Assembly (NCBI GenBank): GCA_017499595.2
Contig: CM039008.1
Location: 2,046,001 to 2,110,000, forward strand
Direction: 5' to 3'
DNA: 64,000 bases
Origin: Psilocybe cubensis
Taxonomy: Eukaryota
Part shown: in pieces, positions 8,490 to 64,000 of the stretch
Layout of the letters: the number at the start of each line of letters is the position of its first letter
Position numbering within the stretch: the stretch's first letter is position 1
Notes under the pieces: generated by a model
Told to the model about the DNA's origin: nothing
Seen by the model: only the letters and a program-made list of their open reading frames with translations
The model's database searches: none
Program-made: the position numbers and the translations under genes

Positions 8490-14573
<6,084 letters not shown>

Positions 14574-37073: not shown

Positions 37074-37769
37074 CTTGACGAGTTTGAGGAGGAAGCTTGA
37101 GGATGACTGGAGACGACGTGCTCTGCGATGAGCAAAACCTTCAATGTGATGGGAGCCTTCGATTTATACATGTACAAACACCACTGATCCCCGGCAGTGC
37201 GGGCCGCACCCCTATCTTCCAACTTGAACTCTACTGTTAGGCCCGATACTGGTGCTTGTGGGTTAAAAATTAAAAAAGAAAATAAAAAAAGAAAATACAA
37301 AAAAGGAAAGAGAAGGAGGGAAGGGAGGGAACGAATTCACCCTTCATTTCATACTACTAACATCGTTACTACACTGTTAGTATCTAACATATCAGTGGTT
37401 CGCATTGCTTCACGATTAGCCGGCTTGGTTCAACTCGGCTAAACTCTTGATTCTCGCTTAGATGAACAAAAATACACGAAAAATAAATCAAACATGGTAA
37501 GAGCCCCGAATACATTTCATGGAATCTGATGCTCGCTTACGATTTGACCTCGCATAGATAGCACTGTGCAACGGTTAGATGAAGGTGCGCACATCTCCGA
37601 CGCCAAGGCAAAGGACTTAGCTGGAAACTGCAACAATTCACAGCAGGGCACCAACAACGCCCACCCGCCGTTCCCGCCGTGATTCCCCAACCCACACCAG
37701 CAACAACACCCAGAAAATCGAATTGAATACGCGTTGCCGACGCATCCACCATCCCCATGCTCATCAGCC

Positions 37770-38690
37770 GCGTCCCCCATCCATTCCCAGGCTCGTCAAA
37801 ACTAAACACCGCGCTTCCCACTTCGAAGACGACGCGCTCGCGTCACGTTGGGGCTCTTGACGACTTGAACGTGCTTTGCCGACGCGTTCACCACCCATTC
37901 CCGTCCTCGTCAAGGCTATCCACCGCGCTTCGTGCCTCGAAAACGATGTGCTCGGATGATGTTGAGGGTTCTTGGCAAGGTTAGTGTCACTGACAGCCTC
38001 CATATGATGCTGTACTCACCATACCACACTCATACACACCCAGCAAGTCGTATCGAACACGTTTCAATGCCTCTCTACACCCCGCCTCCCAAACTGGCCG
38101 TGCTCATCTTACAAAACATCGTCGCTGTGCTTCCCGCTACGAAAACGCCATGCCGGTGAGATTTCTTCTCAAGGTGAGTGACCCCGACAACCTCTTTAAA
38201 TTTTAGTGCCATACTCACCAACATAACCAGCTCGTTCATGGCCAGCTAGGCACGATGAGCCTGAACACGCTGCGACAACGCGTCCTCTATCCCTTCCCGC
38301 AGATCCGCGTGTGGGGCTGTTGTCAAGGTTAGGGTCGTTGACAGCCTCTATCTCACCATACCCAACTCGTACGTCTCTGCACATGTACGTGTGTTCCACG
38401 TAGTGACGTGCTCGTCTCGCAGATGAACTCGTCGCTGCGCTTCCCGATTCAAAAACACCACGATTTCTTCTCAAGGTTAGTGACCCCATCGAAGTCTTTT
38501 TACTGGCACGCTGTGTTGATGCGTCCAAGTCTTCTATCCATCCCTGCACATCCAATTGTGTCCGCCACGAAATTAACACCCATGAAGTCACATCCTTGAA
38601 CAAAGCATTCCTGCACTTTCGCATGGTGTGTCCCTTGAAAACGATGCGCGTCAAGGTTAGTGATGGTGTTGACCACATTTGAAGAATGCT
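37770..38690. repeat. Degenerate tandem/modular repeat tract
   Basis: A ~113-bp duplication at 37770 and 37883. CAAGGTTAGTG-like cores at about 37976, 38170, 38324, 38472 and 38652. GATTTCTTCTCAAGGT(G/T)AGTGACCCC at 38160 and 38462. Confidence 0.7.
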
Positions 38691-39111
38691 CACCAAGAAA
38701 AACACGGACCCTCGCATCCAGACCCACTGACCGCATCATTCTCACGTTGACGGCCGGTGTGGTAAGTGCCGTCTCACACGAAAAGTGATTCTGGACACTT
38801 GGGCATGCTGATGCGTAAAACGCGCTCCTTGGGATGGGCAGATTGATGTTTGTGGTGTTCATGAGGGACACATAGCCTGCTGTGCAGGTGAGGGGTTGAG
38901 GGTGCTAATTGGGCGAAAAGGGAAGGATGATCGAAGACGCGGTAGCTAGAGGATCAACTCTGGTAATGTTTGAGGGTTTCTGAAACTTGTTCTAGATTAC
39001 GGACAAATAATAAGGAGTACAGTAAGTGATTTATTAATTTTATAGCAAGTTGTAGTACTAATTTCAATGGTTTCTACTATTACATGAATGAAATCCAGAT
39101 GTCATGAGCAT

Positions 39112-42100
39112 TTAGGTCAGTTTAGGCCATCGCTCCTCGGGAACATCTACCCATCCCACATAACAAGGCTTGTCAGGTCGCTTGGTGTACCGACCTTTGC
39201 ATTTGACATTTCCACAATCACGACAACGGTTGTGGCAATGCTTGACCCGTTGGCGACCCGAACATTGTGTGGAGCCGCATTTTGCACAGGTACGAGGCCG
39301 TTTTCCCTTATCTAAAGCGTGCGATCGTTGAATCTGTTCACGCACACGTTTCTCAGACAGTGCTTCGCGATTTACACGATTGTGTACTGCAAGATTTGTC
39401 GCGGTAGTAAAGGTTTTTCGAGTTGTTGAGTGGGGCAGCAAAAGGTCGGAATTTGCACTTTGCAACGGTGTCTGTTGGTCATCGTGTACAGGTGTGTCTT
39501 TGTTGTTACCATGCACCTCTGAACGATTTGTATTAAAGGTTCCAACAGAAACGGACGTTGGAAGAAGTCCGTCATCGACACTCAGTGGTTTCAGAGTTTT
39601 CTCTGGTACACGGGGTGCCGTTACTGAGCGAGATGGGTTGCTAAGGATTGCTGCCAATGGTTTCCGAATGTCATATGTTGTAAAAAGAGACTCTTTAACA
39701 TTGAGGTTTGTTTTCCAATGTGCATAGTACGATTTTAATTGTTCAATTAACTGCAGTAAATGAATATTAGGATACTAGTCATGTTTAAGCTATTTTGTGC
39801 TTACCTTGTATGATATCTCTGAATTGATATCAGCGTAGTGATTCCAGACCTTCACGGCCTTTTTCCAGATTGGGCCGGATGTCAGAGAGTTGTAGTCGGG
39901 ATTGGCTTGCATAAGATCTCGGAAAAGCTGCTTTTCAATGTCGTTATGAATCGGAAGAATGGGCTTTCGTGTGTGTTGCATTTGAGCTAGAAAAGCATGA
40001 CGTTGCTTTTTGTCAATGCTAGGAATAAATTCAGACATCCCAGTTGCAATGCGAATGCTGGTTGGAATCGGAAGAATGCCTAACGTTTCGGTGGTAGGAA
40101 TGTATAGGTTTCCGTTAACCCATCCAGTAATTTCCACGGGATTTATTAGAACATCGTGAAGAAATGACAATCGCTCCTGAATGCTGTTGGTTAACCAGAT
40201 TGAGAAATGGCTGCGATACTTTTGTCCAGTGCTATTGAATGTTCCAACCTAACAAAACAGTTTAATATGATAGAGTAAGTAACAGTAGATATGGTCTTTC
40301 TTACCACAAGGTTGTGGTGCAGAGTGAAATCAGCAAGGCATGAGTAAACATGTTGCACTGATGCACCCGACGATGGAAGATGTGATCTAAGATGAGTATG
40401 TACTCCACCCTCTGTCATGTTTGTTCCACGAAAACATCGATAGATAGTGAGACTTGGTGCTGCACTATCAATCCCTATTGCCGCATAGAGAGGAATTCCG
40501 GGTGGATCAGATATAAAACCGCGTCGTGTCAAATCAAGAATATGGCCCGAGGTCTTCCAATCATTAAAGTTAAACAAAGGAGCACCTGTTGTAGCATCTT
40601 TGAGGGGGCCAAAAGTTTCAAAAACCTTCTTTAGCAATCCATGCAGTATGTCAGCTGGTGGAATGATTCGTTTACATCGTTTCCATAACCAGCGTGGACG
40701 AAGCTTTTGGATTTGCTCAAAAGTCAATGGTGGTGTTTGCATTGCGCCCCATGCACTAATTTTGGCACGGTCTTCACCGTCAGGAATAAATATTGCATCC
40801 CGAAGCTGTCGGGCAAACTCTGCACGTAAACCATGTGTTGAGGAGATATGAAACATGTTGAAAACATGGAAAACGTCTTTGAGGACCCGGCTCCGAATTG
40901 TACTGTCCCAGGTATTTGGATACTGGTCCAGTACTTGTTGGCCTAACGATGCACTTTCTGGGTCAATATTGCGAGGATGGTCTGTGGTTATAGGAGGTGC
41001 ACTAGTAGGCCGATGATTTTCAACAACAAGATTTCCGATTGAAGGAATTGAATCATCATCAAAAGTTGCATCAAGTGAGAGGTCGTTATCATCCAACTCT
41101 GCCAAGCTGGCAGTCAATAGATCCTGATTGGATGACTGATCTAGAGACATAGGGCTTGTTTGAGCTCTAGAAGACGAGTCCGACTGACTTGAATGATGTG
41201 TCCAAAATGTTGGCGAAAAGGTCTTTAAATGACTTCGTAAACAGACAAGAGTAAATGGTGGTGTCCCAAATGATGCAAGTGAACAGTTCCGATGACTGCT
41301 GATTAGTGCACCAGGGACAAATACTTCTTCAATGTCGACAGCAGTTCTTGTAGTAGTAATATTGATGCCATCGAGTTGCCTATCATCTTTGTGGGATGAA
41401 ATTTTTCCTCGAGCAATCACAGATGCCTTGTCGGTGTTGAATAAGAGAACAGGAATGCCTGCATTAAATTGAGAAGGAAGAACTTGCGGTGTTTCAAGAG
41501 TCGAAAGTTTGTTGTAAATGCATATACAAGCATATGCATCACAGGCTGCATAGGCGAGTTGATCGCGAGTAAGGATTTCATTTTCCCAAGCACTGCTAAT
41601 GCGCTCGGGAACGTTTTTGTTTAATCGTTTTCCCAAAACCAATGCACATAGATCAGCCAAACTGCATCGTGCGGAAGATATTACCATTTTGTCTTTTGCA
41701 TATTTGGCAAGGTCAAGAGCGCCAACAAAAGGTTTGGGTGACTGGGAAGCAGTTTGAAGATGCTTTAAATCGGCTTCAACAAGCCGTCCAGCTTTCACAA
41801 TATTTGGATTTTCCAATAAAATCCTAAGCTGACTTGGAAGTGTACCGCCTGCTAACATATCACCAATCTAATCAGAATTTTATTAGTTTACATTTAATCA
41901 TTGGTTTAAGTAGCTTATACATTACCTGAAGAATGTATATGGATGATTTATATGCTATTTGAATAATAGCTGTTTGTCCTCGATGCAGAATATGGCCATT
42001 AGATGATACTTCAACATTCCACTCGGAATCAAACCCTATCACGATTTTTTTGTCAGGATGACTTGGATCAAGATCATCAAGAATAGAGGCCATGGCAGCG

Positions 42101-44196
42101 TCTATGGCAGACGCTGTGCTTTTTACAAAAATAGCAATAGGCGGTGTCGGTACGGCAAGTGGTTCAAGATCTGGATACTTTTCAACTGGTACCACAGACT
42201 CTCGAAGAGACGGCCAGGCATCTTCAAGGAATGCCTTGTCACTGGCAACGTTATCTGTAAATGCAAGCTTGGGTTCGGAATGACCATACATCTTGAGTGA
42301 GTGAAGCATTTGCTTGAGTGCGAGCTGGTATTGAGAATGTGACTTTGTTGCAACAAGGCTACATGACCGGATCTCGCCCCTTTCATTGGTGACCGTAAGC
42401 AATCCCGTAAATATTTCTTCGCCATTGACCTTGGCAATATGCTTTGTGATCTGATTACAAAAATAAAGTTAGTAAAGAGTTATAGTAGTGATAATAGACA
42501 ACTACCACCTTGTGGCTATGATCGAGTGCACAAATTTCTGCACTAAGCATAGACATATGCTGGTTGAAATCATGGATATGCTCCATAATGAATCGGTCGT
42601 ACATGTTCCGGATCCATTGTGCGCTTGGTGTAAATCCATGCCTGCCATGAGGACTGATATCATCAAAACGTGGAAATGACATATACTTTTCTTCCCGCCA
42701 TTTGTCCAGTTTACGGCCAGCTAATTGGTTCAAATACTGAAGATGAAGCTCATCATACTTCAGCAAATGATGCACTCGAATTGTGTCCGATATTTGCTTT
42801 GCACCCAAACCGTTCTGGAACGACGACCTTACATACTGAAAAAGCCGTTTGGATATCGCACTACGATGACTAAGAATGGCGGGGAATTCAGCAGCCAAAT
42901 CTTGTGGAAGTGCCGAGAGAATGCGGCTATCCCAGCTATTAAAGGTCACAGTGTGCTTTCCAGACTTTGGATGAGTGCAGACACTGCAACGATAGCGATA
43001 TCCAATAAGATAGAATTCGGAATCAATATCAATGCATCGGCGAGGATATGATATATTTGCGTGACGTTGTAGTGTTGACTTGCAAATTGGACAGGGAATG
43101 CGTTTGAATAATGCTTGAGGGTCCCACAAATAAAAGCGGATATCCCACAGCTCATGGGGAGACGGTTTGTTGCGTTGAAGAATGAAATATATTGCTGGTC
43201 TAGGAAACCAAAATGAACAGTTTTTGGAATACAAGGGGGGAAGGCCATGCTTGTCTCGTTTTTCGGGCGCAGATTCCAAAACTTTGGCTTCGAAAGCCTC
43301 GAGAAGCCAAACAGGACGCGCATGACGGATGCGCCTACCTGTATTTTCTTGGTACTCACTGTCCTCAACATTCTCATCAACTGGATCCAGCTCATCACCC
43401 TTTTCATCCTGATTCTCCTCAAACCCAACATCTACACCAATTCCCTCGCCCGACATTCCAGTTTCTTCATCTTCGTCCTGGTCTTCATCGGCTAGTTCAA
43501 CCGGTCTCTGGGGATCTTCATCCGGAATAATTTCAATTGTTGACAACGATGTGGGTTCGGAGACATTTGGTAGCACAGGATTTTGAGCGAAAAGAGGGTT
43601 GGGGAGTGTTTGGCGAGTTGATGGGTCCACCGATACGAGAGGTGATCCACCGGACAAATTTGGCATTGAATTTCCTCGATGAAGAGGAAAAGGAAGTCCC
43701 GATGGCGGGCGTGAAGGCTGAAAAGTGCCTGGAATGGTCTATGACAATGGTAAACCATGTTAGTTGTAAACAAGTAGATAAAATTAATAAGACTCACCAC
43801 ACGGCCGAATTCTATTGAAATCTGAGGCTTACTTTTCCGTGGCCGCCCAACAGCTTTCTTTACAACAGGTGTTTGTTGTGCTTTTGTGCCAGAACCTTTC
43901 GGCCTGCCTACGGGGCGGCGATGAGCAGAAGAATCTGTGTCTTCTCCCACTGCTCTGGATTTACTCTTGCTTCCCAGCGGTCGCCCACGCTTTCGAGGAC
44001 GTGAAATCAAGTCCACGGGATATGGGGTAGCTGATCCGGACTCGTGGAAATGCGCAGGTGTCGTTACATTGAATAACGTATGAACTAAACAACCAAAATA
44101 AGCCGCCGAGACTTCAACATCAACAAGGGTTACACATACCTTCTTTTTCCCTCGGTTGACTGGGCATGGGAACGTCAAATGTACGTTCGGAGACAT
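39112..44196 (-). mobile_element. Putative DDE transposase gene (Mutator/ISL3-like signature) with AT-hooks, Cys-rich domains and an inserted DEDDy 3'-5' exonuclease; about 6 exons, roughly 1,600 aa; start codon uncertain
   Basis: Three GRP AT-hooks; CPIC...YRYRCSVC; ALDHSHK; AFTDNV; exonuclease motifs GFDSEW, EADLKHL and YAACDAY; VLKDVFH; RGTNMTEGGVH; C-terminal CAKC..C..C..CRDC..C. Splice sites are canonical and I saw no internal stops. Confidence 0.75.
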
Positions 44197-46808
44197 GCGA
44201 CAATCTAAGAGACCTCAAGTCAGCATACTTTGTACAATGTGAGTGATGCAATTTGTGGCTCACAATGGGCCGCCTAGTCTCGTTGATTGCTGTGGATACG
44301 AAGATTCCAAATCCATTGTTGTTGGATGCCAATCCATGATAATTCACAGTACGTGAGGGGAGATGAGGGACAGCAAAAGGTAAACAGCGGTAAGAATACG
44401 GCGCAAGCAAGGTACAGAGGAGTGCTGAGACGGCCGCGCGACTCGAGTAGACGCAGACGCGACGTGAATGAGACGGGATGAGATATTTCCCAGTCATGTG
44501 AATAATTACATAATATTCTCAGCATCAGTATCCAGCATCAGCCACAGGCATGGATAGCGAGCCTACTGTTAGGCTCGCTATCCATGCCTGTGGCTGATGC
44601 TGGATACTGATGCTGAGAATATTATGTAATTATTCACATGACTGGGAAATATCTCATCCCGTCTCATTCACGTCGCGTCTGCGTCTACTCGAGTCGCGCG
44701 GCCGTCTCAGCACTCCTCTGTACCTTGCTTGCGCCGTATTCTTACCGCTGTTTACCTTTTGCTGTCCCTCATCTCCCCTCACGTACTGTGAATTATCATG
44801 GATTGGCATCCAACAACAATGGATTTGGAATCTTCGTATCCACAGCAATCAACGAGACTAGGCGGCCCATTGTGAGCCACAAATTGCATCACTCACATTG
44901 TACAAAGTATGCTGACTTGAGGTCTCTTAGATTGTCGCATGTCTCCGAACGTACATTTGACGTTCCCATGCCCAGTCAACCGAGGGAAAAAGAAGGTATG
45001 TGTAACCCTTGTTGATGTTGAAGTCTCGGCGGCTTATTTTGGTTGTTTAGTTCATACGTTATTCAATGTAACGACACCTGCGCATTTCCACGAGTCCGGA
45101 TCAGCTACCCCATATCCCGTGGACTTGATTTCACGTCCTCGAAAGCGTGGGCGACCGCTGGGAAGCAAGAGTAAATCCAGAGCAGTGGGAGAAGACACAG
45201 ATTCTTCTGCTCATCGCCGCCCCGTAGGCAGGCCGAAAGGTTCTGGCACAAAAGCACAACAAACACCTGTTGTAAAGAAAGCTGTTGGGCGGCCACGGAA
45301 AAGTAAGCCTCAGATTTCAATAGAATTCGGCCGTGTGGTGAGTCTTATTAATTTTATCTACTTGTTTACAACTAACATGGTTTACCATTGTCATAGACCA
45401 TTCCAGGCACTTTTCAGCCTTCACGCCCGCCATCGGGACTTCCTTTTCCTCTTCATCGAGGAAATTCAATGCCAAATTTGTCCGGTGGATCACCTCTCGT
45501 ATCGGTGGACCCATCAACTCGCCAAACACTCCCCAACCCTCTTTTCGCTCAAAATCCTGTGCTACCAAATGTCTCCGAACCCACATCGTTGTCAACAATT
45601 GAAATTATTCCGGATGAAGATCCCCAGAGACCGGTTGAACTAGCCGATGAAGACCAGGACGAAGATGAAGAAACTGGAATGTCGGGCGAGGGAATTGGTG
45701 TAGATGTTGGGTTTGAGGAGAATCAGGATGAAAAGGGTGATGAGCTGGATCCAGTTGATGAGAATGTTGAGGACAGTGAGTACCAAGAAAATACAGGTAG
45801 GCGCATCCGTCATGCGCGTCCTGTTTGGCTTCTCGAGGCTTTCGAAGCCAAAGTTTTGGAATCTGCGCCCGAAAAACGAGACAAGCATGGCCTTCCCCCC
45901 TTGTATTCCAAAAACTGTTCATTTTGGTTTCCTAGACCAGCAATATATTTCATTCTTCAACGCAACAAACCGTCTCCCCATGAGCTGTGGGATATCCGCT
46001 TTTATTTGTGGGACCCTCAAGCATTATTCAAACGCATTCCCTGTCCAATTTGCAAGTCAACACTACAACGTCACGCAAATATATCATATCCTCGCCGATG
46101 CATTGATATTGATTCCGAATTCTATCTTATTGGATATCGCTATCGTTGCAGTGTCTGCACTCATCCAAAGTCTGGAAAGCACACTGTGACCTTTAATAGC
46201 TGGGATAGCCGCATTCTCTCGGCACTTCCACAAGATTTGGCTGCTGAATTCCCCGCCATTCTTAGTCATCGTAGTGCGATATCCAAACGGCTTTTTCAGT
46301 ATGTAAGGTCGTCGTTCCAGAACGGTTTGGGTGCAAAGCAAATATCGAACACAATTCGAGTGCATCATTTGCTGAAGTATGATGAGCTTCATCTTCAGTA
46401 TTTGAACCAATTAGCTGGCCGTAAACTGGACAAATGGCGGGAAGAAAAGTATATGTCATTTCCACGTTTTGATGATATCAGTCCTCATGGCAGGCATGGA
46501 TTTACACCAAGCGCACAATGGATCCGGAACATGTACGACCGATTCATTATGGAGCATATCCATGATTTCAACCAGCATATGTCTATGCTTAGTGCAGAAA
46601 TTTGTGCACTCGATCATAGCCACAAGGTGGTAGTTGTCTATTATCACTACTATAACTCTTTACTAACTTTATTTTTGTAATCAGATCACAAAGCATATTG
46701 CCAAGGTCAATGGCGAAGAAATATTTACGGGATTGCTTACGGTCACCAATGAAAGGGGCGAGATCCGGTCATGTAGCCTTGTTGCAACAAAGTCACATTC
46801 TCAATACC
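42327..46808. repeat. Near-perfect palindrome: arms 42327-44565 and 44570-46808, spacer CTGT
   Basis: Centre GGATAGCGAGCCTA-CTGT-TAGGCTCGCTATCC. Mirrored ORF coordinates sum to 89135. The only difference I saw is 42787/46348 (Asp vs Asn). Confidence 0.97.
44939..46808 (+). mobile_element. Mirror copy of the 5' part of the transposase gene, cut off by the gap
   Basis: ORFs 44939-45643 and 45469-46680 mirror ORFs 43492-44196 and 42455-43666. Confidence 0.8.
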
Positions 46809-46908
46809 NNNNNNNNNNNNNNNNNNNNNNNNNNNNNNNNNNNNNNNNNNNNNNNNNNNNNNNNNNNNNNNNNNNNNNNNNNNNNNNNNNNNNNNNNNNN
46901 NNNNNNNN
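46809..46908. other. Assembly gap (100 N)
   Basis: Run of Ns. Confidence 1.
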
Positions 46909-47183
46909 CTTGTCCTGCGGTTCGACATGAGTAGAATTGGTGGAGGAAAACTAACTGCCCGTATCGCGTCGTGTGTTATATGTATATACCTTGCCTTTGT
47001 TTAACGACACGCCCATTTGGGCCTTTGCGCATGTACTTGATGATAAACATCTTTGCCTTTATTAAATTTGGCACATGTCGCTACACAAAAAAAACACCGA
47101 AAAAACACCCAAGAAATACGTACGCAAATTAAGAGACATAAAATCCGCAAAAAGTTGGTACACGATGGACTAGTTACATTGCA

Positions 47184-49905: not shown

Positions 49906-50505
49906 TGCGATTTTCGCGAAACACTCTGGTCTGCGCTACACTGCTTGTGCTGTGTGGTCATCAGCTGGTCGTTATTAAGACACGATCGCATCATATTTTC
50001 TTATTGTGCTCGTAGGTGGAGACTCGTTCAACTCATGTATTTTTGTTTTTTTTGTTATTCACGTACATCACCTCTAGCTAACTTCATACCAACATTGTTT
50101 AAAAACGTACCTATGGTTCTGCTACTCAAGGCTGTCGTTAACGTTGAGGAAAAGAGAAAGCGTGAGAATATGTTGAGTAGCTCAATATGTACCCCTCGGA
50201 ATTTCAAGCCGCTCAAGCCGATTATCGCGTGCGGTATTCTCCTCGGCAACGCGGCTTGAAAATTCCGGGGGTTCATCATGGCGTGGTCGGCATTTTCTCA
50301 CGGTTTCGTTCTCTTTCCACCCATAACACACCATGTCGCTCAGTGCGTAAGTAGTAGTAAATATATTTACAGTAGATCGTAAATATGTGTACAAATTAGT
50401 TTACAAACGAACGAAAGTCGGAACGATGGAGAACCGCCAAAATAAGACAGGAAACAGAAAAAACAGGAAACAGAGCAGAAGACGCTCAGATAGAGCAGAA
50501 GTCGC

Positions 50506-51071: not shown

Positions 51072-51275
51072 GTCGGCGAAAAAGTATGGAGGTGGATGTG
51101 GCGGTAATTAGGGAGGAAAGTATGAGGCGCGAATACGGTTTGGCTGCTATCTTTTAGGTGAGTCCCTCTTTGTTTCCTTATTCCCGGTATTCACAAAGAG
51201 TTTTTGAATAAAGAGCCCCCATCTGAGTGTACAAAAGGTGACCTCGGGAAGGCAGGCATCCTCAGTATCATACCC

Positions 51276-56172: not shown

Positions 56173-56777
56173 CATTTCGTGGCGCGCAACTTTTCATAAT
56201 TGTTACATATCAAAATTCTTCTACTTAGACTAATATAGCGGTTTCGTGGTCCATGTTATCAGTAGCTTGAAAGTTTGTTTTCCGATCAATTTACCTTTAA
56301 TTCTTGTTATGAGCGTATTTTCTTTCGTCACTGAGCGAGTAACATTATTTCTCAGGCCATCTCCATGCCATCTCCAGGTTTGAACGCTCTTTCTAGTCTT
56401 GATCGGCATCAAAACATCGCGCGCGTTGGCCATGGGTTCCGTCGCGCGCAAAAACAATTAAACCGACCTAGGAATGGATGTCTATTTGCGTATGCAGTGA
56501 ACTTTACACAACGGAAAATTATTGCACTAAGTATTCATAGAGCCAAAACTAAATATGATTTACAAGAAAAACATTATTGCGGGACTAAGTATCGAGATGA
56601 GACTGAGGAAAGAAGAAAAAAAATAGAAGCATGAGTGGAACTTGGGTGCGAAGATATACGAATAACCGAGATGCTACTGCCAAGCTGGAACGCCTTTGCA
56701 CATTCCGCACTACAAGGTAATCAGAACAGAATCGGTGAACAAGCAGTTAAAATATACGAACAGGTTGGAGTCCTGTC

Positions 56778-57365
56778 CTAGTAATATTCCAATTCACGAG
56801 GACCCAATCGCGAGGTCTCGGCGGAAGGACCGTACGGGTCGACGTCTGTAACGAGATATATATTTTGGCCCGATCGATGGAGGAAGCGATATCGACAAGG
56901 GTTTTGAAGTCCATGGATTCTCTGCAAGAACTTTAAGATTCAAAGGTAGCACGCCGTAAAAAAACTGCATACCTCCATGATGTTTATGTCGTTTTGCGAC
57001 CAAATATGGTCGATTGCTTCCAGAATATTGGCAGTTGTCGGCGTATATGAATTAGCGAAAGAACCGTCGAGGAGGCTGCGGACTGTATTGACAGATACTG
57101 GCATGGAAACGATATAACGACGTTCGCTTCGCAGTCCGGAGCGCAATAATGGGGCAGGGCGTGAGCTCAAATTATTGAGGTTTAAAAGGTGTGGAGAAGG
57201 GTTGTAGACAACCGTGTAATAATCGTAAAAAGTGAACACAGCGAGCAACGTCATGGGTGAAAAAAGCGCGAGAAAGAACCATAAACCATTGTGTGTTAAA
57301 ATGCCTATGCCGACCAACATGGTGCCTACGACAAGCGTTGTGACAGCGAAGCATAAAATGCCCAT
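56778..57365 (-). CDS. Hypothetical membrane protein (two N-terminal hydrophobic segments)
   Basis: MGILCFAVTTLVVGTMLVGIGIL...LWFFLALFSPMTLLAVFTFY within ORF 56940-57449; a plausible intron near 56973 extends the frame to a TAG at 56778. Confidence 0.45.
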
Positions 57366-57916
57366 GATGGTGGATGGGTGGAACGAGGTGGGAGTTGGCT
57401 TCACATTAGATCTTAGCCTATTTAAACACTTTCGAGGTTTAAAACACAAAGGACATACGAAACAAAGAGATAGACGTTCGGGACTTTAAACTATTCATTA
57501 AGATCTTCACGAGACAGTCCGTGACCCTAATGCGGGCCTGACGCGCCTTCTACGCGACCTGACATTCAAATAAAGTAAGTTGCCTGCAATACAGAATTAT
57601 TTTCAGTTGAAGGTGCAACTTATGGGGAGACTTTTTCACATAAACCCTTATGGTTGCATTCGTTCATAGAAAGTCGCGGTAAAATTAAATAGAACCAGTG
57701 ACTCTGACATTGTTACAAACTCATGAATTATTAGAACAGGAAGCATGGCGCAGGAACTTAATACCCTTGCTCGAGATTATCTTTCCTCCGATCGTTGACG
57801 TTGATGTTGTTGCATATATTGGAGATGGGGTGTCAATTCCGAATAGGTAGATATTTTCTCAGGGGGTATCGGTGATCGCTGTGGGGAAATTCTTGATAAG
57901 TACAAGGCAATGCGAA

Positions 57917-58471
57917 CTATACGGAAGCTGAACGTACTGCTTGTATCCCGACTATATCTTCGGGAGGGCCTTCTTGATACATGATCTGTTGAAGGTAGGG
58001 ACAAAGTTGGCAAATATACGGGCACGGATGAGGCTCGAAGTTCGATCGATTAGTGGAGGAAGCCCCGGGGTCAATTGTGGGATGTTGAACTCGGACCAAA
58101 ATACTCAGATAATCACTTGGAAGAGTGACGTCGAGTAGCTCAGGTGGCCGAGTGAGTGAGACCTGATTGTATGGCAAAGGACTTCGGTTTGCATTATTTG
58201 CGAGTGATACGTGTGATCGATAAGTAAAGCGTTGGTTATACGGGGGGTTTCGATTTGCATTATTCATGGACTTCGTGCAACTGGGGCATTTAGGGTGCCC
58301 ATCGCCGTCTGGAAAAGGTAGATGGGAATAGGTTGGTACAGATTGAGCGGGTGATGTGATGACATGAAATTGCCGCAATTGCTGCCGCTGTGTGTCCGGG
58401 AAGTGATAGTGGTTTCTGGCGCAATATCCGTCTCCCGATTCCATAGTTTTGTAGATGGTAGCAGACGACAA
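57917..58471 (-). CDS. Possible hypothetical protein
   Basis: 184-aa ORF with CPSC and a duplicated NNANRxP(L)PYNQ motif; no family recognised. Confidence 0.3.
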   Translation of the reverse strand: MSSATIYKTMESGDGYCARNHYHFPDTQRQQLRQFHVITSPAQSVPTYSHLPFPDGDGHPKCPSCTKSMNNANRNPPYNQRFTYRSHVSLANNANRSPLPYNQVSLTRPPELLDVTLPSDYLSILVRVQHPTIDPGASSTNRSNFEPHPCPYICQLCPYLQQIMYQEGPPEDIVGIQAVRSASV

Positions 58472-59100
58472 AAGTCGTGGGGAAGGGAGAATCGCAACTT
58501 TTATCCTGTGACTTTCGAGCGACCCTGGATAGTTTAGTTACCTTGTAGTTACCTAATCTTATCTCCACAACAGTTGTACTCACAGTGTAACGTTATGGCA
58601 GATACAATAAGTTATTGAAGTTCGGCCGGCGTGTTCAAACGTGTCTAGATAAGTTAGAATCAAGCTTGGGTTTCGATGTGTTCAAGACTTACTTGTCAAA
58701 ATGGGCTCGGAAGCGGATCATAGCTCATGTCTAATTTGTCTTCTGACAGAAAACTTCCATTAAACTTTCGGAGACGATGTGCATCCTCACAGTGAGCGAC
58801 TATGACTTTAAAATTGAGACATAGGGATTTCCACATTAAGACATTTGATAATGGTATGGGAAGAAAGGTTGTACAGGAAACGAGCGACGGGGTAAAGAAA
58901 AGCAATGTCAACGAGTTTCAAACCCGAATAGTATGCAATAACAGATGCAGGAGGAAAGGAACGTGGATTAGAGTCGGACATGAATAGTGCATGTGGAAAT
59001 GAACGTGAAAAAAAGAGTAGAGAGGAGAGACCATTACAAATAAAGGAAGGACAGGTATAACAAGCCAGGGCACAATGGTATAGAGTTGGGGGGAGGGAAT

Positions 59101-60022
59101 TCAGGCCTCTTCATCGCTACCACTGCCGCCCTCGCTAGACGATTCATGCGAGCCCTCTTGGTTATTGATAGCTTTACGAACGCGCACAGCCATTTTCCGC
59201 CCTTCTACCCGTCGCGAGGCTTCAGATTTGTATTTGAGGATCAATTTCAGGGCACTCTTGACAGGCCAACAGTTGTCGTAATTAGCCAAAACAGGCCAGT
59301 GCTCGGGACGCATAGCCTGCAAAACATGAGATAAGTTGAGCAGAACTGAAACCAGAACACACCTTGTTGCATATTCTCTCAATCAGTCTCGGGTTTTGCG
59401 ACCGATAACTAGCATCGAGCCGGAGAGTCTTGGTCGCCTCTCTGCGAAGCCAATCCTGTGTGATAGAGTAAAGAAAAGACATATAGGACGAACGAAATAA
59501 ACTTACCTGCAGGGTTTCAACGTCCGATAAGGCCCAGTCGTGCTCGCCCACAAGTACATCTTCCAAATTAAAACCACCCGATCCTGGGCGACCGGGTTCA
59601 CCTGGGGGCTTCCGGATAATGATGACTTTTGAAGTGCCTACTGGCGCAGACGAGGGCCCTGCGGTAGCGACACCTTGAGCGGGTAAAGTGGTTTGCGACG
59701 GCCCTGCCGTCGCAGCAGGGTTCGGAGGGTCTGGGTTCGGAGAGTTGGCAGACGAGGAAGTTGACTGTGAAGGGTTAGCAGGTGCAGGGGCAAGTGAGGG
59801 GTCGTCGTTATCGTCAGGTAAATCAGCGGAAGACCTCCTTGGTTCCCAATTAATCCTCATGGCTGTTTTGGGAACAGGAGGAGCAGAACGAGAGACTGGT
59901 GTAAAGTTGATATGCGATGTTACCATAGGGTGGTGAAATCCGATATAGGGTTCGGAGACGGCCATGGGGACAGGTTCCACCAGGGAACCTGATGACGAAG
60001 CTTGACGAGTAGTGTTCTCCAT
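59101..60022 (-). CDS. Hypothetical protein: P/S-rich N-terminus and folded C-terminal domain (3 exons)
   Basis: RKPPGEPGRPGSGGFNLEDVL...|DWLRREATKTLRLDASYRSQNPRLIERICNK|AMRPEHWPVLANYDNCWPVKSALKLILKY, joined by canonical introns. Confidence 0.7.
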
Positions 60023-60889
60023 GGTCGTACGAGTAAGTTGAAAGGAGGCAGAAAAGAGCGTCTAAGAAAGGTTGGTGGTGAATTGATAATATGAGAAGGG
60101 TAGGATGGCGAGGGGCTTGAAATATACGCACAGTCGATAGCACACAGGCATTATCAAGTCGCTGTGGGCGTGTTTTACGCGTCAAACGGCTTTTGCGGAG
60201 GACTGCTTGATTGCTTTCACACTGATCTATTAGGTCTATTGATTCAGAAAGGGTACAATTACAAATTATACAGAAAGAACTCTTTCATCGAGGAAGACGA
60301 TGTTTCCCCATGACGAGGAGATGAACAAAGAAGGTCGGAAAGGTGGTCCGGTCGCGCGCCAGCATTGATATACCGTGTTGATTTCCATGCCGCTTCGGCG
60401 AGTTGCCGAAGCGGCATGGAAATCTGTGCACTATAATATTCTCGTTCAAGCATTTTCGCACGGTTCGCTCTTCCTCCACCACGACCCGACAGTCTGTAAA
60501 AAATACGTAGTTTCAGCGACTCCTGTAGTTAGATTACTTCTTCTAGTAGAGTGAGAGAAACTGAAGTCTGCTAAAGCATCCCACCCAAACATAACTGAAA
60601 AATAACAAAGCTCGGATTGTATAGTGATAGTGAAAGGGATCCCGGGTGAGAGAATAAACGAAACAAACACGCTGTCGTCTCGTTGATGACCCGCTTGTGT
60701 CGAAAGGCGGATCCAGCGCTAGGCATATCTCCGGTGAGCTGAAAGGCAACACGACGTACTCAATCTTAAAGACAAGACACGGCAGGCTTTGAATAAAAGT
60801 ACCTTCACCCCACAAATCAAACATTTTGCCACATTTGCCCGTACACCACAGTGCTATCCTATCTGTCTACTTATACCTACTTATACATC

Positions 60890-62518
60890 ATGAACTTGGT
60901 ACGTCGTGACATTTGAAATGTAGAATATTTACTTTAACCGTTGAAACAGAATAGCTCTTTCGTCCTTGCGAAGGAGTTGAAGAACCCAGGGATTGAACAC
61001 GTTGATCACTTGCTCTTCTCGAGCAATGGAAAATTTTTGGTCGCTGCAGGTATACTATTTCTTTGCTTTTCACTATTGGAACGAGAATCTGATGCAACAA
61101 AATAGGTGACCGCGACAAGGTTTTTATATGGAACACGGAAACTTTCCGGACTGAACAAGTCCTCGAGAACAAGCAGTGGGGGCAAGTTAGTTGCCTAGCG
61201 TGGGCGTATACCGAATTACCTTCGAGGGAGCCCTCAACCGTATTATGCGTCGGGAATGTTTTTGGTGGTATGAGCATGTTTTTAATGGACTCTCGTTCTG
61301 TTAAGGTGTGCCAATCAGAGGATATCCTAGCGAGTCACTAATTCTCTCTCGTAGCCTTTCACGGAGAGAGGAACCGTAATCCAGCTGTTCACCCCAAATG
61401 ACATCGTGGAGAACCTCGTATTTGATAAGATAAACGGCAGGCTGATTGCTTCCAGTCATTCCGGAGCTGTTAAGATGTATTCTGTTGATGCAGTCGGTAA
61501 GGGTTATTCCTGGTTTCTTCTGTACCATTTATTTATTGCCTGTAGCTGGCTCAGCGAATCTCGTCTGGGAAGCTCCCAGTAACCGACCTGGTATTCCGAC
61601 GTCGGTCCTCTTCTTCGGGTCAACAAATGAAAAGTTGCTGTCCTTCGGACTAGAGAATGGTGACGTGTATGTTTATCAACGTAATATCAATTAACCACGC
61701 TGTTCAACTGTTCTAACTGTTCTTAATTCTGCTAGTTGTTGTCGGGACGCTTCCAATGGCGAAGTGCTCTGGACCAAAAAACTCGCCAGTGGGATGTACG
61801 CATATTAACATATTTTACCTTATATTCGACTGATAAGCTCATGTAGCGGATCTGCTGCGATTTCGAGCGACCAGACTGTTATCATCGTCAACAATCTCAA
61901 CAACGGCAATTTTGATGTTTACCAAACTCCTGATATGTCTCCTCTCCAGACCCTAGCCGTTGGGGACTCCGTGACCACCCACAAATACTTCATAAAGCAG
62001 TGCCGTTTCATTGAAGGCACGAAACTGTCGGTGTGCGGTAGCCACACTAATAAGGTACATATCTTTGACGTAGCCAATAATTACGTTCTGCAGACCCTTA
62101 CCTCAAGTCCAAAAGGTTTGATCTTTTGCCGTATCTTATGCTTTCTGACGCTCAAACATGTTCACAGAGGCTCACATGACACAGGCGATTGCAGTAACCA
62201 TGGCGGAGAGTCGCAAAGTCTGTATTGCAGCATCTTCTAATGGCTTCATCTATCTGTGGGAAAAGCGGAGCCAGCCCTTTGTTGGCGTCGGTGAAACTCA
62301 AACACAGCCTGCAAATACGCTCCTTCACTATGCCAGAACCAATGGTCCCTTCATTGCTTTTGTCATGGCATGCACTTACGCTAACTGGGCACCATATCTT
62401 TTTGCTGTAAGAATTCGTCATCTGGCCTCAACTTTTATATCTAATAGCAATGTCTACCTTAGTTGTTCGCTTTCTTGACTTCGAAGGCGCAATATTACGG
62501 GCTCCTCAACGCAAATGA
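60890..62518 (+). CDS. WD40-like beta-propeller protein with hydrophobic C-terminal tail (multi-exon)
   Basis: LLFSSNGKFLVAAG-DRDKVFIWN, WGQVSCLAW, LLSFGLENGD, SVCGSHTNKVHIFDV, AASSNGFIYLWE; tail PFIAFVMACTYANWAPYLFALFAFL; stop at 62516-62518. Confidence 0.75.
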
Positions 62519-63580
62519 GGGAAATTTAGAAAATTTAGAGTTGTAGCCAGCATTTGTAGTTACGCGCACTCATAATGTGTATATAACTTTACGTGGTTTT
62601 AATGTCTGCGAGTAGCTAGTGGGATCAGGTCTGAAAGTCAGGCATTAGAAATACCTCAAAGGTAATGCGTGTTTGGTACAGGGCATACTTAAATGATACC
62701 ATTATAGAGTTGTGAGCAAGGAGGATTTGCGAGGAGGTTAAGTGATCTTCAAACCGTAACTTATTGTGGTTTTGACCCCCTTTTTAGGTGCTAGAACTCC
62801 GAAGCAAAGTCCAGAATGACAGCGAAATCAGAGTTACACACTCAGCGCACTTGACGAGTCAAACTACGCTCTATGCTACCGGTCATCGTGTTCAATGAGG
62901 CTGGTTTAAAAGCCGTCGCCCGTCGCATGCGTCCCTTTCACGAGAGGTAAGCAGAAATTTTCGTTCTGATCATTCCAGGACATCGGTGCCCACGGCTCAC
63001 TTCCATGAACAGGTGAATCTGCGGTCGAAGGGCAAGGTCGGGGTGAAATCTACACGATAGGGTCTCGACAACTGAGCAACACGATAATCTTCCACTCAAA
63101 CGCACGTTATTTGGTCGCTGCTCAATCTGCGGGGGTTAAGCCGGTCACGATACAGGTCCTGAATCATACTTCGTCATAGGTAAGTTGAAGTTTGTAATAC
63201 GTATATCTCTGGACGGATCTGTATCGCAAAATCTGATTTGCAAGAATCTGATATATTTGATTTAGATTAATTCGTTATTAAATTGTTCAATATATCACGG
63301 GCAGCCGACCAGGCAAGCCCACACTCATATTCATGCGTGAATCAGATAGCATTGGAGCGGAGAGCGTAGTGAGTCACTGGCTTCAAGTCTTCTTCCAACA
63401 GATACGGTGCTGATGGAAGATGAAACGGCACAAGTGACATTGGAGCTGGTGGAAATGGCGCTGGTAGACGAGTCAGAGAGGCGGGTCAGCTCACGGAAGG
63501 AGCACGTTCATACCCCGGAACGGTCATATCCACGCGCAGGTTATGCGCTCTGCACGCGCGTGAAGCTCTTTGTATGCGGT

Positions 63581-63989
63581 ACACGTCTTCCGGGCCGGCC
63601 GGATCCGAACACGCTCATAACACGCTCAGCACGCCCTGAACAGAAGGAGTTGTACTTTCCACTATACCCTTGTACCCTAATCGTGCCTGTTTCCTGCACG
63701 CCACCTTGAACACTGTATGCACCGACGAGCTGCAAGACTTAACTCGCTTCTGTCAATCTAACTGCAAATACCGAGAAAGTTGATCTGTATGCGCCAATTG
63801 GAGGAGCACGTGTTGAGGTGCTTCCCGCGGCACACGTCTTCCGGGCCGGCCGGATCCGAACACGCTCAGCGCGCCCTGGAGTTGTACTTCCCACTATACC
63901 CATGTACCCTAATCGTGCATGTTTCCTGCACGTTACCTCGAACACCGTATGCACCGACGAGCTTCAAGACTTAACTCGCTTCTGTCAAT
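63581..63989. repeat. Tandem repeat with ~230-250-bp period, at least 2 copies, reaching the window edge
   Basis: ACACGTCTTCCGGGCCGGCCGGATCCGAACACGCTCA at 63581 and 63832; CAAGACTTAACTCGCTTCTGTCAAT ending at 63757 and 63989. Confidence 0.9.
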
Positions 63990-64000
63990 ATAACTAATAC

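Follow-up and report, generated by a model that had tools for sequence, protein, structure and literature searches.

A divergent Spt5-like gene, a transposon and an assembly fold-back beside RPS14 in Psilocybe cubensis

Features of the Locus

The window considered here is a stretch of 64,000 nucleotides of the Psilocybe cubensis genome (Table 1). Its part from 37.5 to 64 kb is probably a scaffold that joins three unrelated things: a transposon, an assembly artefact with a gap, and a block of lineage-specific genes. A preliminary description of this DNA had tentatively read the transposase and the gene block as one large cargo-carrying element in the DNA that follows RPS14, where recognizable housekeeping genes were said to "stop abruptly". 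The last ordinary Pfam domains do lie there, but the change is less abrupt than it seemed: of the 22 long ORFs listed before 37.3 kb, 13 were scanned, and 8 of these lack a Pfam family as well. The repeat tracts reported at both extremes exist, although the left one is internal to the transposon. The transposase-like gene was found, with Pfam matches to DUF6729 and DNA_pol_A_exo1, as were both quoted protein motifs (at 55822 and 59611). The block of genes is likewise present, with six ORFs or genes located, but its supposed WD40 protein gives only a weak beta-propeller-like match.

Table 1. Positions of the features discussed in the text.
Feature	Position	Strand	Remarks
Acyltransferase ORF	34714-35436		Shares with RPS14 the rank of last ORFs bearing ordinary Pfam domains
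uS11/RPS14 exon	36413-36718	-	Last housekeeping gene; Pfam Ribosomal_S11 1.2e-30
Target site duplication (TSD), left copy	37239-37246		8 bp, TACTGTTA; repeated at 44564-44571, immediately outside both terminal inverted repeats (TIRs)
MULE-like DNA transposon	37247-44563	-	7.3 kb, multicopy; from TIRs, TSD, depth and heterogeneous flanks
Degenerate subterminal repeats	37700-38700		Inside transposon; 150-190-bp units; families D1-D6, 61-86% identity to reference copies
Transposase-like gene	39112-44214	-	Several exons/ORFs; from Pfam
Fold-back copy of transposon end 42327-44565	44570-46808	+	2239 nt, 1 mismatch, 4-nt centre; ends at gap
Scaffold gap	46809-46908		100 N; stands in place of 3-9 kb or more of unique DNA
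Spt5-like paralog gene P0003	47187-49877	-	~800 aa, apparently intact; NGN, KOW, one PAWDPSSRTP motif
Small conserved ORF	50622-51071	-	Upstream of Spt5-like gene; no Pfam family
Repeat/coiled-coil protein P0162	51276-56172	+	1495 aa; GMSSDES C-terminal region; weak coiled-coil Pfam matches only
Two-TM ORF	56940-57485	-	Homolog of C-terminal part fused before P. cubensis Spt5-like paralog P0154
KPPGEPGRP protein gene P0001	59104-60022	-	274 aa, 2 coding pieces; no Pfam family
Beta-propeller-like ORFs, weak	61809-62478	+	Beta-prop_EML_2 8.3e-5, 22.5 bits (cut-off 90)
Two short pieces, 62978-63040 and 63585-63643	62978-63643		Inverted and joined to 46909 in one X9 contig
Tandem repeat at window end	63576-63995		~250 bp; varies between strains; loose ends at 63585, 63643, 63826

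A Multicopy MULE-Like Transposon

The transposase-like gene lies within a self-contained element bounded by its own imperfect TIRs of about 23 bp (37247-37269 and 44541-44563) and an 8-bp TSD. The right TSD shares its final 2 nt with the first bases of the fold-back arm, which leaves only 6 nt of that copy beyond doubt. The gene comprises a DUF6729 region (42455-43738, Pfam 1.6e-19), a MULE-like region (41872-42468, PF10551, E 0.0096, with 16.8 bits against a Pfam cut-off of 27.6), a 3'-5' exonuclease region (40191-41867, DNA_pol_A_exo1 1.8e-12) and a Cys-rich tail (39112-39774). In run X1, which is possibly the source of the assembly, a Logan contig of 7324 nt covers the same span and stops at the terminus.

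This element is a recently active, multicopy, cut-and-paste transposon. Averaged over bins, the depth of its mirrored end was about 124 against 14.4 for the gene block in run X11 (8.6x) and about 148 against 13.2 in run X12 (11.2x). Reads running off its terminus enter many different flanks (74 and 78 reads, consensus agreement 0.49). The copy in the window would have inserted just outside the RPS14 gene, duplicating 8 bp of the target. It resembles MULE/MuDR elements in its TIRs, 8-bp TSD, roughly 10 copies, subterminal repeats and large transposase gene with a weak MULE match. It differs from them in that this match falls below the Pfam cut-off, the TIRs are short and imperfect, and the transposase bears DUF6729 and a 3'-5' exonuclease domain. 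No description of this combination of DUF6729, MULE-like and exonuclease domains was found in the searchable literature.

A Fold-Back and a Gap in the Assembly

The transposon end is followed by its own mirror image, which runs up to the scaffold gap. In runs X1, X9, X11 and X12, no read or contig crossing the centre of this fold-back as a palindrome was found. Reads leaving 46808 run on into transposon sequence (agreement 0.99-1), and the loose ends before 44572 differ from the mirror sequence. The fold-back was judged to be an assembly artefact: the contig would have halted at the transposon end, folded back and then been scaffolded across the 100-N gap.

Could the palindrome at 42327-46808 nevertheless be real? 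It would then represent either two transposon copies inserted head to head or a true inverted duplication, and the gap would truncate the second copy. Transposons can insert beside each other, and one base distinguishes the two arms (C/T at 42787), which is not required of a pure read fold-back. The mirror position of 42787 (46348) carries G in all four runs, so this mismatch may come from an error in one of the arms. Reads and contigs at the terminus, however, including those of run X1, pass into heterogeneous sequence (agreement 0.49-0.62) and not into the mirror. Moreover, the 4-nt centre lies 2-4 nt past the transposon end, and the second arm halts exactly at the gap. A real palindrome is considered improbable.

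At the gap, contigs extending left of 46909 at single-copy word depth reach 3033 nt in run X1 and 8867 nt in run X9. The sequence left of 46909 is agreed upon by 11 reads of X11, 13 reads of X12 and one X1 contig (agreement 0.99-1), and this sequence, including the 30 nt next to 46909, is not present in the window. The extent of "27 kb" given for the presumed element overlooked the 2239-nt fold-back; about 2.2 kb of it is therefore a mirrored copy.

A Block of Lineage-Specific Genes

Beyond the gap, the block at 46909-64000 is a chromosomal stretch of fast-evolving, lineage-specific genes that occurs in every P. cubensis run examined at even low depth. It is covered in 30 of 30 depth bins and in all four runs (X1, X9, X11, X12), and contigs are collinear with it. 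Words of 46909-52900 are carried at 87-100% by all nine runs, from three studies, that were listed as containing this DNA; RNA runs were not among them. Neither presence/absence differences nor extra copies of the block were found (depth is even in X11 and X12; contigs are collinear in X1 and X9). The block is taken as single copy from the evenness of its depth, its ratio to the transposon and long unbroken contigs, and it may be hemizygous. The runs come from cultivated material that may be related, so finding the block in each of them speaks only weakly against mobility. A scan of 55 of the 60 ORFs of at least 75 aa in the block detected no family of transposases, recombinases or helicases. 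Apart from the fold-back, the window contains no inverted repeats of at least 40 nt.

At 50% identity (E 4e-36), the small conserved ORF corresponds to the N-terminal part of P0153, a fused gene model of P. cyanescens; it and the Spt5-like gene are thus neighbors in that species too. The gene for P0162 has coding tandem repeats of 135 bp and 165 bp, and one 135-bp unit is missing in run X9. Residues 17-91 of the P. cubensis paralog P0154 match the two-TM ORF (57206-56970; tblastn, 63% identity, E 8e-24). The nearest 30 Atlas clusters of the KPPGEPGRP protein are Basidiomycota hypothetical proteins. The preliminary description had suggested that motifs like KPPGEPGRP and GMSSDES occur in multicopy agaric hypothetical proteins, and language-model leads likewise place both proteins in large families of Basidiomycota hypothetical proteins. 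In one X9 contig, 46909 is joined to 62978 on the opposite strand, and 63040 to 63585 with 544 nt skipped. This inverted copy of about 122 nt could represent inverted repeats bounding a 16-kb unit.

A Divergent Spt5 Paralog and Its Family

Judging from its sequence, the gene encoding P0003 is a paralog, much diverged, of Spt5, an elongation factor of RNA polymerase II. P0003 maps onto the window at 93-100%, with a short first exon further upstream of the main coding span. Its C-terminal ORF (47187-47990) aligns with residues 605-945 of the paralog P0004. Pfam recognizes Spt5-NGN (28.3 bits, cut-off 22.4) and KOW (24.9 bits, cut-off 22.3) in P0003, and weak matches to the KOW1, KOW2 and KOW5 models occur among the paralogs. 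The PAWDPSSRTP motif, present once in the window protein and twice in P0004, presumably resembles the C-terminal repeats of Spt5; the Pfam CTD model gave no match at E<=0.01. The family profile matched solved Spt5 chains at 9.4e-47 to 2e-32 (the best over profile positions 3-450) and Arabidopsis RDM3/SPT5L (8hyj_W) at 5.6e-24. At the level of sequence comparison, homology to Spt5 was thus shown to span the acidic N-terminus through the NGN and first KOW domains. AlphaFold models P0003 with low confidence (mean pLDDT 41.6).

The Spt5-like family is a fast-evolving agaric family with lineage-specific duplicates. It has 621 representatives at E<=1e-3, 224 at E<=1e-10 and 63 at E<=1e-30, with at least three copies in P. 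cubensis, at least three in P. cyanescens and two in Flammula. In the tree, P0003 and P0153 are sisters (support 99), and species-specific sister pairs occur elsewhere. Like Spt5 (the large subunit of DSIF; NusG/Spt5), the family has an acidic N-terminus, NGN and several KOW domains. Unlike it, the family is multicopy, evolves quickly and lies in transposon-rich DNA, and only agarics were present among the named matches. P0003 is only 23% identical (E 1.5e-8) to P0161, the one canonical fungal Spt5 obtained by word search. Pfam scores in the family are weak, and only two to five Spt5-related models are matched at E<=0.01, against 13 families in P0161.

Mobility of the Block and of the Spt5-Like Genes

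A giant cargo element across about 27 kb is not supported, because the transposon is separate, a fold-back without read support and a gap that hides unique DNA lie between it and the block, and the block is even in depth, collinear and devoid of a mobilizer domain in the ORFs scanned. The preliminary description had itself cautioned that the transposase might have inserted independently, and the TIRs, TSD and depth of its element bear this out. A narrower version would treat 46.9-63 kb, perhaps with the DNA hidden by the gap, as a single large unit of low copy number, a cargo element or a translocating island, that keeps its genes together as it moves. The block holds orphan or fast-evolving genes only, a homolog of the two-TM ORF directly precedes a second P. 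cubensis Spt5-like gene (P0154), and in the distant model P0029 an Spt5-like gene is fused to a C-terminal region with weak similarity to the GMSSDES type (single pairwise comparisons gave E 5e-5 and 0.005). Further points in its favor are the inverted right-flank pieces set against 46909 in X9 and the strain differences at 46909 (X9 versus X1, X11 and X12), 47450-47457 and 60404-60436. Beyond the depth, collinearity and missing mobilizer already described, however, no homolog or motif of another block gene was detectable at any of 36 metagenomic loci with Spt5-like genes, so the predicted co-occurrence is limited to the two fused models. A word search with the giant protein returned only itself, and one with the KPPGEPGRP protein a single short relative. 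The pair of small ORF and Spt5-like gene is kept in P. cyanescens at 50-54% identity, which fits vertical descent. A single island is considered very unlikely. Starship-type elements use a tyrosine-recombinase "captain" as mobilizer and carry giant cargo. The block resembles them in being multi-gene, non-metabolic, lineage-specific and next to housekeeping genes. It differs in having no captain or other mobilizer among the ORFs scanned, no clearly defined ends and no presence/absence polymorphism in the runs examined.

The broader proposal, a link between mobile DNA and a gene for transcription elongation, fared better, at the level of the Spt5-like family. A transposon gene (Plavaka, tnp2/EnSpm, KDZ or Gypsy) lies within about 7 kb of the Spt5-like gene in 8 of 14 assessable metagenomic contexts, a count that covers the flanks of Spt5-like genes alone. 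No ordinary or housekeeping Pfam domain was found among the 112 flank ORFs scanned. Are the Spt5-like genes, then, cargo of agaric DNA transposons (Plavaka/EnSpm-type, KDZ), or moved by them in trans, as TET/JBP genes are? The window copy would be an old, fixed or domesticated insertion, and a transposon-borne paralog would boost elongation through its element or counter silencing. Seven contexts have a DNA-transposase gene at a distance of 1.5-7 kb: Plavaka in L004 (2e-14) and L022 (1e-25), Transposase_21 in L015, L016 and L027 (4e-22 to 5.5e-25), and KDZ, plus CxC2, in L024 (1e-32) and L031 (4e-33). A segment of about 3.5-4.7 kb containing the gene is 85-96% identical in the differing flanks of L004, L016 and L027, and a further flank, that of L032, has 606 nt of it (94%) at the contig end. 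Three copies with 79-84% identity (L010, L015 and L024 types) are co-present in the same samples, and duplicate pairs are specific to species. In L024 the gene lies between inverted repeats of 84 nt (99%) that are 3.3 kb apart, and in L010 between arms of 119-175 nt (97%) at a spacing of about 8.5 kb; L016 has head-to-head copies of the gene's 5' region (1440 nt, 97%). Complete fungal transposons of diverse types (KDZ, Plavaka, EnSpm and others) carrying TET/JBP genes have been reported, in a paper whose main text contains neither "Spt5" nor "KOW" (PMC12730594). The Spt5-like genes share with TET/JBP genes the repeated position beside Plavaka, EnSpm-type and KDZ transposase genes in basidiomycetes, but no complete element bounded by TIR and TSD was found that holds both an Spt5-like and a transposase gene, and the termini of the shared unit have no clear TIR. 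Near-identical copies accompany different transposases (Plavaka in L004, tnp2 in L016), and L016 and L027 are 96% identical in their Spt5-like part but 75% in their tnp2 part. Distance and orientation change from context to context, one neighbor is a Gypsy retroelement (L032), and 6 of the 14 contexts have no transposon gene. A fused transposase domain was seen in none of 38 long family proteins, and the window copy has no flanking inverted repeat except a weak 57-nt palindrome (72%). Carriage as transposon cargo, or movement in trans, is on balance unlikely; the genes may instead just occupy DNA that is rich in transposons.

Discussion

What might a second Spt5 do in mushrooms? The functional mechanism is wholly one that we infer. 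The paralog would bind the polymerase clamp via its NGN and KOW domains, as Spt5 does, and would build an alternative elongation complex for particular loci. Transposon transcription or silencing would be its most likely target because of the duplication of the family lineage by lineage and its transposon-rich, housekeeping-poor surroundings. In plants (SPT5L/KTF1) and ciliates, a second Spt5 is devoted to transposon or non-coding transcription, and the role of the agaric paralog would resemble that of plant SPT5L/KTF1 or of the developmental Spt5 paralog of Paramecium. The latter, Spt5m, is reported as a specialized paralog (PMC8934623). The agaric family is similar to SPT5L/KTF1 (RDM3) and Spt5m in that a divergent Spt5 exists beside the essential one; it differs in its several copies per genome and quick turnover, and nothing seen here points to Argonaute-hook repeats, a dedicated polymerase or developmental expression. 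No description of a second Spt5 for transposon or non-coding transcription in fungi was found in the searchable literature.

A more far-reaching reading can be offered only tentatively, and is doubtful as it stands. Agarics would harbor Spt5 paralogs that are mobile or borne by transposons, a family repeatedly captured by, or moving with, Plavaka/EnSpm-type and KDZ transposons, or moving as short units flanked by inverted repeats. Through RNA polymerase II, these paralogs would help transcription to pass along their carrier elements or keep those elements from being silenced. In P. cubensis, the gene at 47.2-49.9 kb would descend from such a paralog and have become fixed, and the 16-kb block, with the inverted copy (about 122 nt) seen in X9, could be what is left of such a unit.

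For the P. cubensis genome, the outcome is mostly corrective: the island is a scaffold artefact next to an ordinary active transposon, with about 2.2 kb of the assembly mirrored. The Spt5 paralog family is the part that deserves follow-up. Multicopy, rapidly duplicating Spt5 paralogs located by Plavaka, EnSpm-type and KDZ transposases would offer a handle on how mushrooms transcribe or silence large DNA transposons. If carriage as cargo were proven, they would be the second case, after TET/JBP, of fungal transposons bearing chromatin or transcription machinery.

Structure of the Region After RPS14

The transposase-like gene downstream of RPS14 lies within a repeated MULE-like transposon. Two raw-read runs (X11 and X12) and two contig sets (X1 and X9) of Psilocybe cubensis were aligned to 44570-64000. 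Summed depth at the mirrored transposon end was about 124 (X11) and 148 (X12), compared with about 14.4 and 13.2 over 26 bins of the gene block from 47162 to 64000, giving ratios of 8.6x and 11.2x. Past the terminus at 44572, 74 (X11) and 78 (X12) reads enter heterogeneous sequence (consensus agreement 0.49), as expected of a repeat with many insertion sites. For this repeat, X1 has a contig of 7324 nt that ends at the terminus; going that far left of 44563 leads to about 37240. The left end, GGCCCGATACTGGTGCTTGTGG, mirrors the right end, GGCTCGCTATCCATGCCTGTGG, and TACTGTTA borders both. The element is therefore placed at 37247-44563, with imperfect terminal inverted repeats (TIRs) of about 23 bp and an 8-bp target site duplication (TSD), the right TSD overlapping the start of the fold-back arm by its final two letters. 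A literature search found no description of DUF6729 or of an exonuclease domain in a Mutator-like transposase.

The preliminary description was accurate in the features that it listed but overlooked a 2239-nt fold-back and its exact end at the gap. The two arms are reverse complements with one mismatch and a 4-nt center, and the second terminates precisely at the 100-N gap. A real palindrome was considered and judged unlikely; reads crossing 44570 do not go on as the mirror image. Reads leaving 46808 continue along the transposon itself (agreement 0.99-1) instead of entering the post-gap sequence. At the single position where the arms differ, 42787 has C and its mirror position, 46348, has A. 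All four runs have G at 46348, matching the first arm, and the second arm thus holds an assembly error.

Left of 46909, one common sequence was found in 11 reads (X11), 13 reads (X12) and an X1 contig extending 3033 nt leftward, while an X9 contig extends 8867 nt. Both contigs have single-copy word depth, and the 30 letters adjoining 46909 on the left are absent throughout the window. Since this unique DNA is absent from the window, the transposase does not adjoin the gene block; the scaffold conceals several kb between them. The proposal that transposase and block form one unit was thus not borne out, as a fold-back and this hidden sequence separate the two.

Features of the window and of metagenomic loci holding Spt5-like genes
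Feature	Sequence	Coordinates	Strand	Details
ORF without Pfam family	window	3444-4886		480 aa
ORF without Pfam family	window	22095-23732		545 aa
ORF without Pfam family	window	29368-31770		800 aa
uS11/RPS14	window	36413-36718
MULE-like transposon	window	37247-44563
TSD copies	window	37239-37246; 44564-44571
Degenerate repeats	window	37.7-38.7 kb		150-190 bp, inside transposon
DUF6729 match	window	within 39112-44214 ORFs	minus	1.6e-19
MULE match	window	within 39112-44214 ORFs	minus	sub-threshold, 0.0096; 16.8 bits vs cut-off 27.6
DNA_pol_A_exo1 3'-5' exonuclease domain	window	within 39112-44214 ORFs	minus	1.8e-12
Fold-back arms	window	42327-44565; 44570-46808
Gap	window	46809-46908
Spt5-like gene	window	47187-49877		P0003, 'Transcription elongation factor SPT5, partial [Psilocybe cubensis]'
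Weak palindrome	window	50156-50307		57 nt, 72%
Small ORF	window	50622-51071
Giant GMSSDES protein	window	51276-56172		1495 aa; P0162, 'JR316_0011727'
Coding tandem repeat, 1495-aa protein	window	51541-51849		135 bp (45 aa), 2.3 copies
Coding tandem repeat, 1495-aa protein	window	52821-53315		165 bp (55 aa), 3 copies
Two-TM ORF	window	56940-57485
KPPGEPGRP gene	window	59104-60022		P0001, 'JR316_0007504 [Psilocybe cubensis]'
Palindrome	window	60380-60424		perfect 20-bp stem, 4-nt loop
Propeller-like ORFs	window	61809-62478
Plavaka neighbor	L004, L022
Transposase_21/tnp2 neighbor	L015, L016, L027
KDZ with CxC2 neighbor	L024, L031
Gypsy-type pol neighbor	L032
Palindrome	L016	7073-8508		1440 nt
Inverted repeat	L024	4287-4795		palindromic or inverted-repeated region upstream of Spt5-like gene; a separate inverted repeat with 84-nt, 99% arms 3.3 kb apart flanks the gene
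Inverted repeat	L010	1-425 / 8906-9318		119-175-nt arms, 97%, ~8.5 kb apart
Palindromic/inverted repeat	L031	8977-9276		upstream of Spt5-like gene

The housekeeping genes had also been described as stopping abruptly after RPS14. The listed downstream features were all found, but the contrast is less sharp than proposed. A Pfam scan upstream of 37.3 kb took in 13 of the 22 listed ORFs of at least 150 aa and identified SET, synaptobrevin, acyltransferase and uS11/RPS14 domains; a fifth ORF gave weak sub-threshold coiled-coil matches only, and 8 of the 13 were without a Pfam family. The three long ORFs without a family in the table precede RPS14, and orphan genes are therefore not limited to the region after it.

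Content and Strain Variation of the Gene Block

Depth is even from 47162 to 64000 in X11 and X12, and none of the 30 bins lacks coverage in any of the four runs. The block is single copy only in a relative sense, judged by its depth against the transposon. Sampled words of 46909-52900 are present at 87-100% in nine runs from three studies, five of which may represent the source material. Exons of the three annotated proteins (P0001, P0003 and P0162) match the window at 98-100% identity, all three mapped with introns.

Pfam was used to scan 55 of the 60 block ORFs of at least 75 aa, the five omitted being alternative frames over long coding ORFs. No mobiliser was found among these 55; beyond the Spt5-like gene, matches were limited to weak similarities to coiled coils or propellers. 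Neither a tRNA nor an Rfam family was detected across 36-64 kb, and the left and right block ends within the window have no similarity beyond shuffle level.

The X1 and X9 contigs are collinear with the block except for small changes: a 4-bp indel, a 7-bp indel, tandem-repeat variation beyond 63.5 kb and one fewer 135-bp coding repeat in X9. Copies of the 135-bp and 165-bp coding repeats are 92-98% identical. Of the 55 base differences between X9 and the window over 46909-64000, 39 are C>T (19) or G>A (20), and 10 are A>G or T>C. The skew could come from deamination of methylated cytosines in the block.

Strain differences were also observed at three sites. At 46909, one X9 contig joins the block to copies of 62978-63040 and 63585-63643 in inverted orientation, and X1, X11 and X12 carry a different sequence there. 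The X9 junction may reflect a short repeat dispersed in the genome, a rearrangement specific to that strain, or inverted repeats at the borders of the 16-kb block. At 47450-47457, just downstream of the Spt5-like stop codon, two X9 contigs break with an 8-bp overlap, and their 27-28-nt loose ends are mutually reverse complementary. Such ends are characteristic of an insertion that has inverted termini and an 8-bp TSD and that the window lacks. The interval from the KPPGEPGRP gene to the propeller-like ORFs holds a perfect palindrome; at 60404 and 60436, reads of X11 and X12 diverge into other sequence, and do so at the full local depth. The X11 and X12 strains therefore have an insertion or replacement there, possibly a transposon whose ends alone remain in the window.

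Conservation of the Block Genes

On whether the block genes travel together, three fused protein models join Spt5-like proteins to sequences resembling other block genes; against this, no other block gene was detected at 36 metagenomic Spt5-like loci. Two of the models, P0153 and P0154, came from a tblastn search of 161 collected proteins against the window. In P. cyanescens protein P0153, the N-terminus is homologous to the small ORF (50% identity, E 4e-36); what follows is the closest relative of the window Spt5-like protein (54% identical, tree sister, support 99). The small ORF/Spt5-like pair is therefore conserved between the two species. The N-terminus of the P. cubensis paralog P0154 is homologous to the two-TM ORF, in the C-terminal part of the latter (63% identity, E 8e-24). 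In P0029 (1292 aa), an Spt5-like protein is joined to a C-terminus that carries the motif 'MSSDESD' and weakly resembles the GMSSDES region (E 5e-5 and 0.005, each from a single pairwise comparison). This model hints that the Spt5-like and giant-protein families may be neighbors in at least one distant genome.

The 36 loci were obtained by profile scan of metagenome contigs with a 6-sequence Spt5-like family alignment. Only 7 of the 246 window ORFs (at least 50 aa, 37-64 kb) match them, all within the Spt5-like gene. A blastp search against 580 flank ORFs gave one match at chance level, the KPPGEPGRP and GMSSDES motifs are absent from 226,621 bases of these loci, and searches with the extensions of the fused models gave no match below E 0.09.

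The motifs of the giant and KPPGEPGRP proteins had been likened to those of agaric hypothetical proteins, and a protein atlas agrees, as a lead and not a test, by placing both amid many clusters of Basidiomycota hypothetical proteins. The best matches listed for the KPPGEPGRP protein score 0.92-0.95, and the full set of 30 falls among clusters that share no common Pfam family. For the giant protein C-terminus, DUF8263 occurs in 19-25% of members of 11 clusters, again as a lead. In a word-based search, the giant protein matched itself only and the KPPGEPGRP protein had one short relative.

The Spt5-like Family and Its Neighborhoods

The Spt5-like protein P0003 scores above Pfam cut-offs for Spt5-NGN and KOW. 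The six-member family profile matches solved Spt5 chains at 9.4e-47 to 2e-32 (profile positions 3-450) and Arabidopsis RDM3 (SPT5L) at 5.6e-24. The AlphaFold2 model of P0003 (6-sequence alignment) was poor, with a mean pLDDT of 41.6. Exhaustive phmmer searching, with the 369-aa ORF as query, found 621 representatives at E<=1e-3, 224 at 1e-10 and 63 at 1e-30; outside the query's own cluster, the closest is 44% identical. Named matches include at least three copies each in P. cubensis and P. cyanescens and at least two in Flammula alnicola, with others in Pholiota, Cyclocybe and Lentinula; the sole canonical Spt5 among the matches returned with them has an E of only 1.5e-8. In a quick IQ-TREE phylogeny of 21 rows, P0154 pairs with P0004 (73% identical), and so do the two copies from Flammula with each other and two from P. 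cyanescens, always within a species and with support of 100, and Spt5-like genes have therefore undergone lineage-specific duplication. None of the 38 long family proteins carries a transposon domain.

The 36 loci collapse to fewer contexts, as many are the same DNA in different samples; 14 were counted, in each of which the flank reaches 2.3 kb or more to one side. Pfam scans covered 58 of 77 flank ORFs of at least 140 aa and, at loci without a match, 54 of 97 of at least 80 aa, with the omitted ORFs mostly antisense or overlapping, or already scanned. A transposon gene lies about 1.3-7.1 kb from the Spt5-like gene in 8 of the 14 contexts, and none was found in the other six (L010, L002, L020, L006, L035 and L021). 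No ordinary cellular domain scored above cut-off in these 112 flank ORFs, where other matches were sub-threshold (B-box, SpoIID), compared with 4 of 13 ORFs on the window's housekeeping side, an unmatched comparison.

A 3.5-4.7-kb Spt5-like segment repeats in different flanks (L004 vs L016, 86% identical; L016 vs L027, 96%). At its end, contig L032 holds 606 nt of the segment in a fourth flank, with 94% identity to L004. The transposase beside the shared segment is different or far more diverged (tnp2 of L016 vs L027, 75%). Several loci contain extra partial copies of the Spt5-like 5' region or flanking inverted repeats. The ends of the unit common to L004, L016 and L027 have no clear TIR, and no TIR+TSD element enclosing both transposase and Spt5-like gene was definable among the metagenomic loci.

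The region directly upstream of the Spt5-like gene, 5' end included, is palindromic or inverted-repeated in four independent loci (L016, L024, L031 and L010); its window counterpart has only a weak palindrome. The Spt5-like 5' region was also considered as a terminal module of tnp2 elements and rejected: L015 alone gave a match, a weak one (163 nt, 77%), whereas L027, L004 and L031 gave none.

Discussion

These neighborhoods fit a family that often duplicates or moves and inhabits transposon-rich, housekeeping-poor DNA. Carriage of Spt5-like genes as transposon cargo is possible but unproven. Fungal transposons bearing TET/JBP genes have been described (PMC12730594); Spt5 and KOW have zero occurrences in the main text of that paper, though its supplements might mention such genes. 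A literature search did not link Spt5 with Agaricomycetes, beyond unrelated mitochondrial work, or, among the matches listed, with KDZ, Plavaka, CACTA or EnSpm.

By homology, the Spt5-like paralog would act as an alternative Spt5 that engages polymerase through its NGN and KOW domains. Parallels for the agaric paralog are proposed in plant SPT5L and in the developmental Spt5 of Paramecium (PMC8934623). Because of the genomic company that the Spt5-like genes keep, the paralog most likely has a role in transposon transcription or silencing.
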